This document shows, one piece after another, positions 45,353 to 60,820 of a DNA stretch of 64,000 nt; positions within the stretch are counted from its first letter, which is position 1; the number at the start of each line of letters is the position of its first letter. Position numbers and translations under genes: made by a program. Under the pieces are notes generated by a model that was given only the letters and a program-made list of their open reading frames with translations, made no database searches and was not told the origin of the DNA. This stretch comes from Parcubacteria group bacterium (GTDB lineage Bacteria > Patescibacteriota > Minisyncoccia > Moranbacterales > UBA2206), in NCBI GenBank assembly GCA_041659505.1, contig JBAZYF010000001.1, positions 412,933-476,932 on the forward strand, read 5' to 3'.

Positions 45353-46150
45353 CTAGTCTAGCCTTTGTTCGTGATTATGTCTAGGTATATCGCTCATAAA
45401 ACCCTGTTTTAACTTTATTTCTGGCAAATGATCCCACAGCGCTTCAAAAATAAGTTTCAAGGTGTTGTATATTTCCGAACTCTCAATGATGACCGCTAGG
45501 GTTTCCTTAGCGGAGATGAGGGATATTTTTGAGTGGCCGTAAATATCTATTTCTATGGAAAAAGGATATTTACTTTTATCGATTAATTTTGTGGAGCGCA
45601 ATTCTTTTTGGTCGTTTTCATGGAGCATTCCATGGGTGTAGTCTGTTTTTGGTAGGATTGCTCGCACTCGAATGCCCTTTTTTATTCTCTTTTTAATAAA
45701 CGTGCCCATCCATTCTTGCCCGACAATCTTTACGATATCTTCCGATCCAAAAGCCGAGAATCCGCCAGAATATCTCAAAGTATCCAAGTAGACTTCTTTT
45801 ATACCTTCGACTCCCTCATAGAATCGGATTTTTGGTTTGACGCCGGAAATGTTGTAGAGAGAGCGAAATTGCGGTAAGGCTTCTAGAAAGATCGCTTCTT
45901 TCCGTTCGAAATCCTTTTTGAGCTTTTCTGGATCTTCAGCGATGAAAAATCTTCTTTTTCCTTTTGTTGACTCAAAAATCAGCCCCTTGTTTTTGAGATC
46001 CAGCAGGATATCATAGCAAGTGGTCCTTTTAATGAGGGCTTTTTTGGCGATTTGAATGGTCGTTCCGGAGCCTAACTCTAATGATGCGAGATAGACACCA
46101 GCTTCATGGCTAGACAGTCCGATTTGTTCCAAAATAGCTTTTAGTTCCAT
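45353..46150 (-). CDS. TrmB-family transcriptional regulator (N-terminal wHTH), paralog 1
   Basis: MELKAILEQIGLSSHEAGVYLASLELGSGTTIQIAKKALIKRTTCYDILLDLKNKGLIFE... aligns with the other two TrmB-like ORFs in the window. Confidence 0.7.
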   Translation of the reverse strand: MELKAILEQIGLSSHEAGVYLASLELGSGTTIQIAKKALIKRTTCYDILLDLKNKGLIFESTKGKRRFFIAEDPEKLKKDFERKEAIFLEALPQFRSLYNISGVKPKIRFYEGVEGIKEVYLDTLRYSGGFSAFGSEDIVKIVGQEWMGTFIKKRIKKGIRVRAILPKTDYTHGMLHENDQKELRSTKLIDKSKYPFSIEIDIYGHSKISLISAKETLAVIIESSEIYNTLKLIFEALWDHLPEIKLKQGFMSDIPRHNHEQRLD

Positions 46151-46387
46151 ATATTTAGTATAATGACGACAAAACCGTCATCTATTGCATTATAACAAAA
46201 CTAGTAATAATAGTCAAATAATGCTTATTATAAGGAAAATAAAGCAAAAGAGCTTTTTCAACTATCGACAATGATTGACGCTATCTTTGACAATATGACG
46301 TTTTAGTAGTATAATTGGCTGTTAAGATGAATAGCCACGAAATGATGGGGCGAGTCTTAACAAAAACTTACCATTAACCAAAAAATT

Positions 46388-46588
46388 ATGAAAATGATCT
46401 TGAATAATGGAACAGTTATCGGTAATGCACCGATAATGTCAGAAAAAACCAGGGAATATCTCAATCAATTCTGGCACTTTCCTTCTAATGAAGAAGCGGA
46501 GAAGGAAAAAGAGAAATATTATACCTTTGATTACAAAAGAGAGATTCACAGAAGAACCGATCAAACAGAAAACGAAATTAAGCCCTAA
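46388..46588 (+). CDS. Conserved 66-aa protein, paralog of 57877-58077, transcribed divergently from a TrmB gene
   Basis: MKMILNNGTVIGNAPIMSEKTREYLNQFWHFPSNEEAEKEKEKYYTFDYKREIHRRTDQTENEIKP. Conservation of the paralog pair argues that it is a real gene. Confidence 0.55.
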   Translation: MKMILNNGTVIGNAPIMSEKTREYLNQFWHFPSNEEAEKEKEKYYTFDYKREIHRRTDQTENEIKP

Positions 46589-46723
46589 ATTCTAGCCGAG
46601 GACAGAAAAAGCTTCTGTCTTCCTTAGAGTTTATCTAAATTCGCAGATGGCTCAAAAGCTCATTAAAAAATCAATAATAATGCCGCTTGTATCGGCGGGG
46701 TAGAAATTGAGCAAGGAGAGAAA

Positions 46724-47131
46724 ATGAAAATAATTCTGCTAATTGAAGACAAGCCGGAAGAAATGGCTAAAGCTAAATTGATTTTGTCAGAAAAAGGTTG
46801 TCGGTTCGTTTCGGCCGACAATCTAGACGATGCCATGCGGGTTTGGTCAAAACTTGGAAACAAGATTTACGGAATCTTGACCGATCTCCATTTCCCAGAA
46901 AGAATTGGAGAAAAAGAAACAGCTTGTGGATTTGCGGTGGTCACTCGCGCAGTGCGGATGGGAATTCCAGTTTCCATTTGTACTGATGTTAATCACCATT
47001 TCTGCGGATATCTTAAATATTTTATGGAAGATATTGAAATGCTGACCCACCAAAATGTTCCATATACCATGGACAATAAAAATTGGCAACAAGCGGTTCA
47101 GAAACTAATCGAACAATTCAAGGAGGATTGA
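46724..47131 (+). CDS. Stand-alone receiver (REC)-like domain protein, partly degenerate
   Basis: MKIILLIEDKPEE...ILTDLHFPE... acidic pocket plus Asp. No output domain. Confidence 0.45.
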   Translation: MKIILLIEDKPEEMAKAKLILSEKGCRFVSADNLDDAMRVWSKLGNKIYGILTDLHFPERIGEKETACGFAVVTRAVRMGIPVSICTDVNHHFCGYLKYFMEDIEMLTHQNVPYTMDNKNWQQAVQKLIEQFKED

Positions 47132-47132
47132 T

Positions 47133-47444
47133 ATGCAAAAATTGATGATTATTGGTGGAGATATTTTGGGCGAAACACTTAAGGTGGTCTTGGCTGACTA
47201 CTTTGATGAAGTGATTGTCGTGGACCACAAACAAGCATTGGAAACTTTTTTCCTTGAGGATCCTACTCATGTGCTTATTTCTGACACGCTCGGTTCTCCT
47301 GGAGATGCGCAGGTAATGAAAGATATCCGTGGCGCGAACGTATCTAGCCGGATTGTTTGCTATGGTTTCGGTGGAAATGTGGATATTAAGCTTCCAATTA
47401 AAAAAGAGGAACTCATCAGTGTTCTAATGGGCGAAAAGGAGTAA
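47133..47444 (+). CDS. Stand-alone pseudo-receiver domain protein
   Basis: REC-like ...VLISDTLGSPGDAQV...LPIKKEELISVL, but the N-terminal acidic pair is replaced (IIGGDIL). Confidence 0.4.
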   Translation: MQKLMIIGGDILGETLKVVLADYFDEVIVVDHKQALETFFLEDPTHVLISDTLGSPGDAQVMKDIRGANVSSRIVCYGFGGNVDIKLPIKKEELISVLMGEKE

Positions 47445-47446
47445 AA

Positions 47447-59029: not shown

Positions 59030-59052
59030 TACCAATCTAGTATAGAATAATC

Positions 59053-59102
59053 AAAAAAAGACACCTTGTGGTGTCTTTTTTAGTGTTTAAGTTGTGGATA
59101 AC
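59053..59102. terminator. Bidirectional terminator hairpin followed by a DnaA-box-like TTGTGGATAA, copy 1 of a two-copy module
   Basis: AAAAAGACACC-ttgt-GGTGTCTTTTTT at 59055-59080, then ...TAAGTTGTGGATAAC at 59087-59101. The same module occurs at 63808-63855. Confidence 0.55.
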
Positions 59103-59125
59103 TTTATTTTTATAACCAAGATAAG

Positions 59126-59821
59126 CTAGATGAATTTAAAAAGATAATATTTCACGTCACCAAGTAAAAGGAAAAGATAGCTTGAGACATCAGAGACGTC
59201 TTTGCGGGAAGAAGAATATATTTCGTAGTAGGCCTTTTCAAATCGGTCAAGAATCCAATAAATTTTCTCGGCGTTTTCTTTATGAAAATACAGCGAAAAG
59301 CCTAAGAGTAAAATGGCCAATTCCACTGGATTTTCACCGCTGGAATTTTCTGGATCAAAATCTTTTCCTAGTTGAGAAAATTTCCCCCAGACTCTTTTGG
59401 CTTGATTTTCTGCAATCATCTCCACGCTTTCATGAAACTCGTCAATTTTTTCAGATGTGGTAAATGCACTGACATTTTCCTCATTAAAAAGAGAGAGGCG
59501 ATTAATAATTGCTTTTGCCTCAGCTTCCGGGTCTGTCTGAGTGGAGTCTGCTTGGATGCTTAAATCAAATGAAATTAGGGAATATTTTTCCAGAAAGGAA
59601 AGCATGCTTCCCACTGTCCAATCTTCTTCGCTAGTCACAATTTCTTGCTGGCCCTTTTGTGCCTTTCGTCCTGCTACCTTGAGCTTTAGGGTTTTTACCA
59701 TTTCCAACGCGATAAAATCAAAATCAGAGCCATATTCAAATTCGCCGTCCAGGTTAATAAAGATGTCATTTTGGCCAAAATTAACAACATCTTGATTGTC
59801 GATCAGGCGCAGATTTTTCAA
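59126..59821 (-). CDS. Hypothetical acidic protein
   Basis: 231-aa ORF convergent with TrmB paralog 2. No recognisable domain. Confidence 0.4.
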   Translation of the reverse strand: MKNLRLIDNQDVVNFGQNDIFINLDGEFEYGSDFDFIALEMVKTLKLKVAGRKAQKGQQEIVTSEEDWTVGSMLSFLEKYSLISFDLSIQADSTQTDPEAEAKAIINRLSLFNEENVSAFTTSEKIDEFHESVEMIAENQAKRVWGKFSQLGKDFDPENSSGENPVELAILLLGFSLYFHKENAEKIYWILDRFEKAYYEIYSSSRKDVSDVSSYLFLLLGDVKYYLFKFI

Positions 59822-59948
59822 AAAAATTCGAGCGGATGGTTGTTTACTTTTCGCTTGGGCGATAATTTCCCAAAGAATGATCGTCGCTCTGGATCCGGAT
59901 TCAACGGTCAGCCAATTAATTTTGTCATTTTTGTTTATAGTGTGAATA

Positions 59949-60641
59949 TTAGTGGCTTAGAGATTCCCAGATGGCTAGGAATATTCCCCTTAGAGTATTA
60001 AATACTTTTGTGTTCTCGATAATGACGCCGACGTTTTCCTCAGCGGGCATGATGGCTAGCTTATTTTTACCATAAAGCGCTATCTCTGCTTCAATCGGAA
60101 ACTGATTTTCCTTAACAAGCCTAATGGCGGAACTGATATGGATTCCATCTGATTTATTTTCGGGAACGATTATTTTCCAAGTGGGTTTTTCTTGTGACGG
60201 ATTATCTTCGAATAACCCGGCGTTAGCTCCTTCTGCCGCCCAAATCAAAGCTTCTTGGTCGTCATGATTGAGAATATCTTTTCGAATGTCTTTGATTCCT
60301 TCTTCATTTTCAAAATAACTGATGAATGTTTTTTGCGGTGACGCCGAAGTGAGCACGAGCAATTGGGGCATAATCTTCTCCAAAACGCTTTGCTTTTCTT
60401 TCAGGCTTTCTTCGATTTTCTTGGGGTTTTGGGCGGAATATAGTATCTTCTTTTGCCCAATGACGATTCGCAGTAGTCCTTGGCTTTTGAGTGATTTGAT
60501 GATGCCGTAGACCGTCGTTCTTTTCACTCCTGATTTGGCAGTAATTTGTTGCATCGTGGCTTCACCAAGCCCTAATAGAGCCAAATAGACCCTTGATTCC
60601 CGGCTGTTTAGGCCTAATTTTTCCAGTTCTTTGGTTAGCAT
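59949..60641 (-). CDS. TrmB-family transcriptional regulator, paralog 3
   Basis: MLTKELEKLGLNSRESRVYLALLGLGEATMQQITAKSGVKRTTVYGIIKSLKSQGLLRI.... Confidence 0.7.
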   Translation of the reverse strand: MLTKELEKLGLNSRESRVYLALLGLGEATMQQITAKSGVKRTTVYGIIKSLKSQGLLRIVIGQKKILYSAQNPKKIEESLKEKQSVLEKIMPQLLVLTSASPQKTFISYFENEEGIKDIRKDILNHDDQEALIWAAEGANAGLFEDNPSQEKPTWKIIVPENKSDGIHISSAIRLVKENQFPIEAEIALYGKNKLAIMPAEENVGVIIENTKVFNTLRGIFLAIWESLSH

Positions 60642-60820
60642 ATTTACTTTGTTTAGGCGATTATTTGAATTATAGCTATTTTTGACTTTTCTGTCAATCG
60701 AAAATAGTGACGACGAAACGGTTGACAGAATTTAAAAGGTGTGCTATGCTCGGGAGAAGCTATATATGACGACGCAATTGGCGTCATAAATATAGCTAAT
60801 AGTACACTAACAATCAAATA

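Follow-up and report, generated by a model that had tools for sequence, protein, structure and literature searches.

The subject of this analysis is a stretch of 64,000 nucleotides (the window, in what follows) from a Parcubacteria group bacterium of the Moranbacterales (assembly GCA_041659505.1, contig JBAZYF010000001.1, positions 412,933 to 476,932), in which three genes of the TrmB family of regulators, TrmB-A, TrmB-B and TrmB-C, are each arranged divergently to a partner and so define the modules A, B and C. In modules A and B the partner is an open reading frame (ORF) for a small protein of a family with 64-66 amino acids, which we name s66. We suggest, with a probability of somewhat more than one half (about 0.55), that the TrmB proteins are local repressors, each driving a shared s66 effector together with signal-specific cargo genes, and that a conserved double hairpin behind the s66 ORF, P1-P2, sets the ratio of s66 to cargo. 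The regulator and operator part is a new bacterial instance, from the Candidate Phyla Radiation (CPR), of a known kind of system, and neither Pfam nor Rfam has an entry for the s66 cassette and the covarying element at its 3' end, a cassette restricted to this lineage. In what follows wA and wB denote the window copies and L-numbers denote the loci of relatives.

The initial annotation of this DNA, made from the sequence alone, had placed the three regulators in one family, and this assignment holds. The Pfam model PF01978 (TrmB), which covers the winged helix-turn-helix (wHTH), gives 42.3, 52.9 and 59.7 bits for the three proteins with a cut-off of 25.6. TrmB-A (45353..46150, minus strand; 265 amino acids) consists of a wHTH, a long helix and a phospholipase D (PLD)-like domain. 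TrmB-B (58292..59029, plus strand; 245 amino acids) and TrmB-C (59949..60641, minus strand; 230 amino acids) are 39% and 32% identical to it, respectively, and the window contains no other TrmB homologs. In the AlphaFold2 (AF2) model of TrmB-A, with a mean predicted local distance difference test score (pLDDT) of 79, the helix spans residues 74-99 and the alpha/beta domain residues 107-241. Foldseek comparison of this model with the PDB gave TrmBL2 as the best match (5bpd, E=3e-15), followed by TrmB (3qph, E=8e-10); for the C-domain there were further matches to PLD folds, those of SauUSI and PLD4, and Pfam shows a weak PLDc_2 match. As modelled, TrmB-A is a TrmB-family member with a three-part architecture like that of TrmBL2. 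The C-terminal sugar-binding subdomain of sugar-sensing TrmB proteins, which have about 340 amino acids in total, is absent from these proteins of 230-265 amino acids. The NCBIfam equivalog models of TrmB, TrmBL1 and Halo-TrmB reach 17-44 bits with cut-offs of 500-650, their best stretches lying in about the first 75-185 residues, and the TrmBL2 equivalog (NF041141) matches TrmB-C only, at 19.7 bits against a cut-off of 530, which does not place it in that group. TrmB-A has 383 homologs, mostly from Moranbacteria, and its orthologs in other genomes adjoin YebC and RuvC and have no s66 beside them. At least five TrmB paralogs are found within about 27 kb in this lineage.

Sigma-70 promoters were predicted in the three intergenic regions, all six scoring 10-12 of 12 with spacers of 16-17 nt. 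In module A these are TTGACT-17-TATAAT for TrmB-A (46189..46217, minus strand; 11/12) and TTGACA-17-TATAAT for s66-A (46287..46315, plus strand; 12/12), and in module B TTGACT-16-TATAAT for TrmB-B (58231-58258, plus strand) and TTGACA-17-TATACT for s66-B (58172-58144, minus strand). Two candidate operators accompany each of these two promoter pairs. O1-A, the palindrome ATGACG-N7-CGTCAT (46163..46181), covers about +1..+19 of the transcript, with 7 nt between it and the preceding TrmB-A -10 box, and O2-A, TGACGCTATCTTTGACA (46276..46292), has the -35 box of s66-A as its right half. O1-B, TTGACATAATTGACGACAA (58266-58284, with the match to the pattern below at 58267-58283), occupies the same place after the TrmB-B -10 box, and O2-B, TGACGTGATTATTGACA (58183-58167), overlaps the s66-B promoter at its -35 box. 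All four follow the pattern TGWC-N9-GWCA, which is 17 bp long and consists of inverted hexamers TGWCNN with a 5-nt spacer; TGWC-N9/10-GWCA has nine matches in the window, and four of these are O1-A (46164), O2-A (46276), O2-B (58167) and O1-B (58267).

Phylogenetic footprints support these sites. When module A is aligned with L008 and L009, conservation is seen at O1, at all four promoter hexamers and at a TTGACG that precedes the s66 -35 box by 6 nt, and the sequence between them has diverged; O1-A itself is nearly invariant in both orthologs with varying flanks, and the TTGACG and TTGACA blocks of O2-A are invariant. At the position of O1-B, L026 has TGACATAATTGA. Other TrmB clades carry a palindrome of their own at the equivalent place, conserved across orthologs of different metagenome-assembled genomes (MAGs): GTCGA-N5-TCGAC, GTCCG-N5-CGGAC, GTCAT-N5-ATGAC, CGTCAC-N5-ATGACA and TGTCAA-N5-TTGACT. 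These clade palindromes share the register of TGWC-N9-GWCA and differ in the inner bases. Deeper TrmB-A orthologs without s66 keep TGACGG-N6-TCGACA after the -10 box. Candidate autoregulatory operators had been proposed upstream of all three genes, and for TrmB-A and TrmB-B the proposal fits the footprints and the position directly after the -10 box, but TrmB-C falls outside that position. A third ATGACG, in the spacer of the s66-A promoter (46295-46300), is not conserved in orthologs.

These operators were also evaluated statistically, by comparing 27 distinct TrmB upstream regions with 87 other upstream regions. An unbiased k-mer comparison put TTGTCG at the top (10/27 vs 0/87, p = 1e-7). 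The pattern TGWC-N9-GWCA was found in 11 of the 27 TrmB regions and in none of the 87 controls (p = 2e-8), and the alternative spacings N6, N7, N8 and N11 gave 0-1 matches; a general test for 5+5 inverted repeats barely discriminates (20/27 vs 46/87). One further candidate, TGTCACG-N4-CGTGACA as the operator of one TrmB clade, was rejected, as it is the core of a dispersed repeat and is also found at window positions 6075, 31598 and 42771. This GC-rich repeat (...CCCTCACCTGTCACG(N4)CGTGACATCCTCTCCCGGAGGGAGA..., with the TGTCACG/CGTGACA core) lies at about 6050-6110, 31575-31640 and 42745-42815 and is similar to repetitive extragenic palindromic (REP) elements or miniature inverted-repeat transposable elements. 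It also occurs upstream of TrmB in L007 and L012, within the long 5' regions of one clade, where it mimics an operator.

The s66 ORFs are divergent to TrmB-A and TrmB-B, and TrmB-C has none. s66-A (46388..46588, plus strand) has 66 amino acids as annotated, although the start chosen by gene callers and seen in distant homologs is Met3, which gives 64; s66-B (57877..58077, minus strand) also has 66. The two had been described as about 75% identical; both ORFs exist, and their actual identity is 79% (52/66), with a proportion of synonymous differences (pS) of 0.76 and of nonsynonymous differences (pN) of 0.12. Over 18 s66 copies the median pS is 0.71 and the median pN 0.25, the ratio of nonsynonymous to synonymous rates (dN/dS) is about 0.17, and the entropy of third codon positions is twice that of positions 1 and 2. 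s66 is a genuine gene under purifying selection, and a spurious or non-coding ORF, for which dN/dS would be near 1, was rejected on this ratio. The likeness of modules A and B at the DNA level extends over the promoters, the intergenic region, the 5' untranslated region (5'UTR), the ORF and about 90 nt beyond the stop codon, in agreement with the duplicated two-gene module that had been proposed. A recent segmental duplication or gene conversion was rejected because synonymous sites are saturated (pS 0.76) and TrmB-A and TrmB-B are only 39% identical; the window copies are old paralogs. Conservation is concentrated in residues 3-47, the last 20 residues are the most variable, and 8 of the 18 copies end in Pro-stop.

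Whether s66 homologs always co-occur with TrmB, a check that had been suggested, was examined in 16 genome loci and in loci from encoding contigs, with 2-5 s66 copies per MAG. A divergent TrmB gene is found directly upstream of every complete s66, in 18 complete modules and two distant ones (about 35% identity) from at least six related MAGs; the converse fails, as TrmB orthologs also occur without s66. Several contigs (L011, L014, L017, L018, L019 and L012) have an end that falls within s66 or its 3' element, which points to breaks in short-read assembly caused by the multi-copy cassette, and the copy numbers per genome are therefore lower bounds. In L024 (606-1820) a distant TrmB-s66 module adjoins a DUF6922/AbiEii pair of the abortive-infection or toxin-antitoxin type, which is probably a coincidence. 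A word-indexed search returned 15 s66 clusters among 5.8 billion proteins and a full profile search 14 representatives among 1.84 billion, nearly all of 48-78 amino acids; relatives bearing source names come from Candidatus Moraniibacteriota or the Parcubacteria group. There are zero matches to s66 in Pfam, NCBIfam, PHROG and PADLOC. Structure prediction, as had been proposed for the 66 amino acid protein, gave an AF2 model with a pLDDT of 66, in which a beta-hairpin is followed by a short helix and a long helix. Several possible identities were tried and rejected: a CsrA-like protein, raised by a superficial 'IGNAP' likeness, has no Pfam match at E below 0.1; a precursor of the type of ribosomally synthesized and post-translationally modified peptides, with conserved leader and variable core, was raised by the variable C-terminus and dropped, there being no conserved modification or export genes nearby; and a defence or phage module was rejected on the empty PADLOC and PHROG results.

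Conserved RNA structures, which the earlier reading had missed together with the cassette behaviour of the small gene, flank the s66 ORF on both sides. Behind s66-A the 3' double hairpin occupies 46588..46649 (plus strand), with P1 of 17 bp at 46588-46631 and P2 of 6 bp at 46632-46649; the covariance-model match spans 46586-46675 with 82.9 bits on the sense strand. Its counterpart behind s66-B (57793..57879, minus strand) scores 99.5 bits in sense and 28.9 bits in antisense orientation. P1 starts at the last base of the s66 stop codon in 17/17 copies, P2 abuts P1 with no spacer, and single-sequence folds of P1 pair the stop codon itself. Over the 17 copies, 97% of the cells are paired and seven pairs show compensatory changes (18 cells); the observed covariation score was reached by 0/500 shuffles, and slid controls pair in 37-54%. 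One invariant U-G pair and many G-U pairs are workable on the sense strand only. In 211 kb the covariance model finds 24 sense matches (68-103 bits), all 24 directly behind an s66 ORF or a fragment of it, and antisense scores of 17-30 bits. A dispersed repeat or a site acting at the DNA level was rejected on this s66-only location, on the sense-strand scores and on the sense-only U-G and G-U pairs. The predicted stability is -25.4 kcal/mol for s66-A (z = -3.9) and -22.1 kcal/mol for s66-B (z = -5.4). The tail of P1, UUUAUCU, is weakly U-rich and doubles as the 5' arm of P2.

The 5'UTR of s66 also holds a hairpin. In module A, GUUAAGAU...GUCUUAAC (46321..46361, plus strand) precedes an A/C-rich leader without a Shine-Dalgarno sequence, and in module B it is GUUAAGAU...AUCUUAAC (58102..58138, minus strand; z = -3.5). 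With a hand-specified stem, 90% of the cells are paired over 17 copies and covariation is weak and not significant; RNAalifold found no consensus for the 5'UTR. Only tRNAs reach the Rfam gathering score in 140 kb, so neither the 5'UTR hairpin nor P1-P2 has a match, and permissive matches in 46100-46800 score at most 19 bits with gathering scores of 35-100. On these scans a known RNA family was rejected for the hairpins.

What follows P1-P2 on the same strand varies between modules. Cargo A comprises proteins of 135, 103 and 116 amino acids (46724..47797, plus strand), the first and third being CheY-like receiver domains, and cargo B an unknown protein of 130 amino acids (57346-57738, minus strand), beyond which a canonical GC-rich terminator with a T-run (57308-57335, minus strand) ends the s66-B operon. 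CheY-like receivers follow in three module clades, module A included, a SLOG/LOG-like protein in one clade, and otherwise unknown small proteins; in Pfam and NCBIfam most cargo is without a recognisable domain except for the receivers and the one SLOG/LOG-like protein, and neither transporter nor modification genes are conserved beside s66. No promoter scoring above 9/12 was found between P2 and the cargo in the window modules. Since there is no strong internal promoter and the canonical terminator stands at the operon end only, the cargo appears to depend on read-through of P1-P2. Two further elements were observed. A conserved element that looks structured, CAGCTAAGGCCYGGATTTGCATAGTGCGGATTGGTCRGRAGCTAYACTG, is found downstream of P2 in L004 (4285-4340), L005, L006 (4290-4345), L007, L010 and L013, the cargo differing among the six; its stems covary by eye (CUGG/UCAG vs CCGG/UCGG vs CUAG/UUAG), and Rfam is empty for these loci. 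A conserved hairpin (G)CCGCYTGTATCGGCGG, followed by GGTAGAAATKGAGCAAGGAG as Shine-Dalgarno region, stands ahead of the cargo in several module clades, namely in the window (46681-46723), in L003 (4494-4535) and in L006, L008, L009 and L010, and it is retained in the module without s66.

This module without s66 is the clade-4 TrmB module of one MAG (L003, 4260-4540), where O1, O2, the promoter and the 5'UTR hairpin are present and both the s66 ORF and P1-P2 are absent; by its sequence it reads as a natural deletion or a pre-insertion allele of the cassette. Gain or loss always affects the s66 ORF and P1-P2 jointly. A comparison of L004 with L013 (4001-4210) is consistent with exchange: their clade-3 TrmB orthologs have a pS of 0.42 and a pN of 0.02, and their s66 genes are unrelated paralogs with a pS of 0.88 and a pN of 0.22. 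The switch points in similarity are the 5'UTR hairpin and the tail past P2, and this is evidence that the cassette was probably replaced by recombination in the conserved flanks. Near-identical s66 proteins are also found beside TrmB proteins which are 30% identical, and paralogous s66 proteins have a mean identity of 61% vs 31% for the partner TrmB proteins. The swap, the loss and the identity patterns together indicate that the ORF and P1-P2 are a discrete exchangeable cassette and are not co-adapted to one TrmB, and the 61% vs 31% identity argues for a common s66 function which is independent of the TrmB partner.

A mechanism that fits these results can be suggested. A TrmB dimer would bind its own O1 and O2 and thereby repress its own gene and the target operon; the near-consensus promoters would require repression and not activation. 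A signal perceived at the PLD-like C-terminal domain would release TrmB, and the paralog-specific half-sites would insulate the modules from each other. s66 is most likely a small protein that acts in trans, its cellular role being the same for all copies, so that several differently tuned TrmB sensors may switch on one effector, each along with its own cargo. Such a trans-acting protein with one role fits best because s66 is under purifying selection, independent of its partner, present in multiple copies per genome and followed by variable cargo. P1-P2 would most likely form or protect the 3' end of a short s66 transcript, by partial termination or by processing, and in this way set the ratio of s66 to cargo. 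Going further, one may propose that the s66 ORF, together with the double hairpin that takes in its stop codon, forms a portable expression cassette of a new kind which recombines between TrmB promoters, and that it either encodes a small effector of a type not known before, integrating several TrmB sensors in a genome-reduced CPR bacterium, or is a translation-sensing riboregulator whose conserved peptide, nascent or finished, gates the read-through jointly with the hairpin; this we put forward as an improbable proposal.

The most serious rival to the local repressor model is one in which the s66 cassette is a cis-acting leader, where the formation of P1, and with it read-through into the cargo, depends on translation reaching the stop codon in the base of P1, as in attenuation, possibly with a part played by the nascent peptide. 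The fixed start of P1 at the last base of the stop codon and the folds that pair this codon speak for it, as do the window cargo in need of read-through, the joint gain and loss of ORF and P1-P2, and the Pro-stop ending of eight copies. However, the conserved part is residues 3-47, and the last 20, which would be nearest to the peptidyl-transferase centre at the stop, are the most variable; an ORF of 64-66 codons with a dN/dS of 0.17 is unlike the classical trp and tna leader peptides; no alternative anti-terminator pairing was seen by eye, with no systematic search made; and P1 has a weak U tract (UUUAUCU) and was not called as a terminator. We consider a cis-acting leader unlikely. It is quite unlikely, in turn, that the palindromes are 5'-terminal RNA stem-loops which stabilise the mRNA of TrmB (and of the module C target) and are not operators. 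That view draws on palindromes which start at about +1 of the predicted transcripts, on the folding of the module C palindrome described below (-15.5 kcal/mol, z = -4.2), and on the sole two imperfect copies (L004 and L008), whose deviations are G-U-compatible on the sense strand of the TrmB mRNA; since these deviations keep G-U pairs, some probability stays with a 5' RNA hairpin. On the other side, conserved non-palindromic variants are unable to fold (wB/L026 TGACATAATTGA(C/T)(G/A)ACA and L013b/L020/L023 TGACGG-N6-TCGACA), O2, which has the same 17-bp geometry, covers the -35 box ahead of the s66 transcription start, a place that yields no RNA, and the geometry agrees with that of known TrmB operators.

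Another hypothesis takes s66 as a protein partner of TrmB, a co-repressor or anti-repressor that would be the 'ligand' replacing the sugar-binding subdomain and would give feedback within the module. The divergent TrmB beside every known s66, even at about 35% identity, and the lack of the sugar-binding subdomain in these TrmB proteins would agree with this. Yet the histories of the two proteins are incongruent, with cassette swaps beside near-identical TrmB proteins and near-identical s66 beside TrmB proteins of 30% identity; orthologous TrmB proteins are found without s66 in other modules and genomes; and as s66 proteins within one genome are 50-80% identical, cross-talk would be unavoidable. 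A partnership of this kind is very doubtful. Highly improbable is the view closest to the initial annotation, that of one shared TGACGAC operator through which the three TrmB proteins cross-regulate, with the 66 amino acid protein as an immunity or signalling peptide. TGACGAC is indeed enriched in the window (9 vs 3.0 expected, 4/9 within the three TrmB upstream regions), and GACGAC is found in 8/27 TrmB upstream regions vs 2/87 controls; but the latter is lost on multiple-test correction, with TTGTCG as the best k-mer. TGACG-N5..11-CGTCA occurs in the window at 46164-46180 and 60767-60786 only. Of the TGACGAC inverted repeats reported upstream of all three genes, that of TrmB-B (TTGACATAATTGACGACAA) is no TGACGAC palindrome and fits TGWC-N9-GWCA, and two of the reported coordinates were wrong by one position (TGACGAC begins at 58276, and the correct range of GTGACGACGAAACGGTTGACA is 60707-60727). 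The recurrent unit is TGWC-N9-GWCA, whose inner bases are paralog-specific and differ among the clades, which makes cross-regulation through one motif unlikely. The immunity or signalling peptide has no match to a defence or phage family in PADLOC or PHROG and no fold match, s66 shows no signal or leader-cleavage motif by eye, transporter and modification genes are not conserved beside it, and most of the cargo has no domain recognised by Pfam or NCBIfam save for the receivers and the SLOG/LOG-like protein.

Several points weigh against the local repressor model itself. The binding of TrmB to O1 and O2 is read from sequence, and so is the role of P1-P2 in 3'-end formation, while the common effector is suggested by the evolutionary pattern. 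The 11/27 count was obtained by testing the TGWC-N9-GWCA rule on its own source sequences, and many of the 27 upstream regions are orthologous and hence non-independent; the strict form is present in about 5 of 13 TrmB clades, with four more being one base off, and the imperfect palindromes of L004 and L008 count here as well. TrmB-C fits neither the rule nor its position. P1 was not flagged as an intrinsic terminator by the scan that finds 57308-57335, whose loop and stem rules may miss stems with an internal loop. For s66, the poor model has no fold match, the best Foldseek E-value being 2.3, and at a pLDDT of 66 such a fold search carries no meaning.

The local repressor model has its closest parallel in the archaeal regulators TrmB, TrmBL1 and Tgr. 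These bind palindromes of hexamer-N5-hexamer form, and a site at or downstream of the core promoter results in repression (PMC4158304); the Thermococcales glycolytic motif TATCAC-N5-GTGATA is bound by TrmBL1 and Tgr (PMC4158304). The proteins studied here share with them the N-terminal TrmB wHTH (PF01978), the long helix and the PLD-like first half of the effector domain, as well as a 17-bp candidate operator of inverted hexamers separated by 5 nt, which coincides with or follows the core promoter as for the archaeal repressors, and probable autoregulation, to judge from the sites. They differ in the bacterial (CPR) host with its sigma-70 promoters, in their shorter length of 230-265 amino acids without the C-terminal sugar-binding subdomain and with equivalog scores far under the cut-offs, and in the half-site, which is TGWCNN here and TATCAC or TACT (TACT-N3-AGTA) there. 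In addition, there are many paralogs here, each with its own half-site variant, and the targets include no recognised sugar-metabolism genes. Over the full length, the closest structure is that of TrmBL2 of the Thermococcales (5bpd/5box; 262 amino acids, E=3e-15 across about 270 columns); it is built of the same three parts and likewise has no sugar-binding subdomain, although the sequence identity is 15-17% and the equivalog score is far below its cut-off. TrmBL2 is described as an abundant nucleoid protein whose DNA binding is non-specific (PMC4877046). The discrete, clade-specific palindromes conserved at each paralog's own promoter argue against such a chromatin role in the present case.

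For the RNA part of the cassette two other comparisons can be made. In leader-peptide attenuation and stop-codon stalling, as in the trp leader and TnaC-tnaCAB, a short ORF heads the operon, a strong hairpin follows the stop codon and the downstream genes depend on read-through. The s66 ORF has the same place at the operon head, with a hairpin straight after the stop and cargo reached by read-through, but it has 64-66 codons with residues 3-47 under purifying selection and a variable C-terminus. Intercistronic stem-loops, such as the REP elements between malE and malF and the hairpins of the puf operon, give differential mRNA stability within operons. Like these, P1-P2 is a set of stable hairpins that separates the first gene of a transcription unit from those further along it, and it would be expected to raise the proximal product; unlike them, it is conserved in both sequence and structure, is tied to one gene family, is not dispersed and has no Rfam match.

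Module C is built differently. The TrmB-C promoter (TTGACA-17-TATAAT, 60697-60669, minus strand) and that of its target (TTGACA-17-TATGCT, 60722-60750, plus strand) stand back-to-back, and the same region holds TTGAC-N6-GTCAA at 60682-60697 and GTGACGACGAAACGGTTGACA at 60707-60727. An extended palindrome around TATGACGACGCAATTGGCGTCATA (60765-60788) reaches from 60758 to 60797 on the plus strand, at about +2..+40 of the target transcript; it is perfect, has a 10-nt spacer and lies in the 5'UTR of the target, and it may serve either as an operator or as an RNA hairpin at the 5' end. The targets are proteins of 143, 407 and 346 amino acids (60821..63696, plus strand), all unknown save for a weak HAD-like C-terminus in the last. 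A metagenome scan for module C orthologs gave one partial relative at 46% identity only, so that the module C sites could not be footprinted.

The genomic setting also differs from what had been described, namely modules that bracket a block of unknown genes: modules A and B are separated by housekeeping genes (FtsH, TilS and an S1-like protein, identified by eye from the translations) and three tRNAs, and it is modules B and C that are contained in the block. The window corresponds to positions of about 180,000-244,000 in a 297-kb ENA metagenome contig. Two more TrmB-s66 modules are found on that contig, 4.5-8 kb past the window end, and about 27 kb thus holds four s66 modules and TrmB-C. Directly downstream of TrmB-A (44218-45335) there are a tyrosine recombinase (XerC/XerD-like by eye, 311 amino acids) and a tRNA-Met. 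A perfect hairpin, AAAAAAGACACC-ACAA-GGTGTCTTTTTT, is located between the convergent TrmB-B and a gene for 231 amino acids (59054-59081) and resembles a bidirectional terminator. Apart from the modules, the perfect palindrome (AAT)TGTTCCACGTGGAACA(ATT) is repeated nine times at 55940-57160, often in pairs about 41 nt apart, within an ORF of 572 amino acids (55445-57163, plus strand); it is absent from the rest of the window, with 0 expected, and the ORF stays open across all nine copies, which are read as CSTWNN, VPRGT or FHVEQ depending on the frame.

To our knowledge, gene regulation in CPR bacteria or Patescibacteria, whose genomes measure about 1 Mb and encode few regulators that can be recognised, is almost uncharted, and among the papers searched there was none that pairs TrmB with CPR or Parcubacteria. 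The operator code TGWC-N9-GWCA with paralog-specific inner bases can be tested, and it offers a natural system for the insulation of duplicated regulators. Should s66 turn out to be a common stress or signalling effector, or to work as a translation-coupled switch, it would represent a regulatory device of a new type; otherwise, what remains is a solid annotation of local repressor modules. The value of these modules lies in a concrete, testable model for regulation in CPR bacteria and in drawing attention to a small-protein and RNA cassette that had not been annotated.

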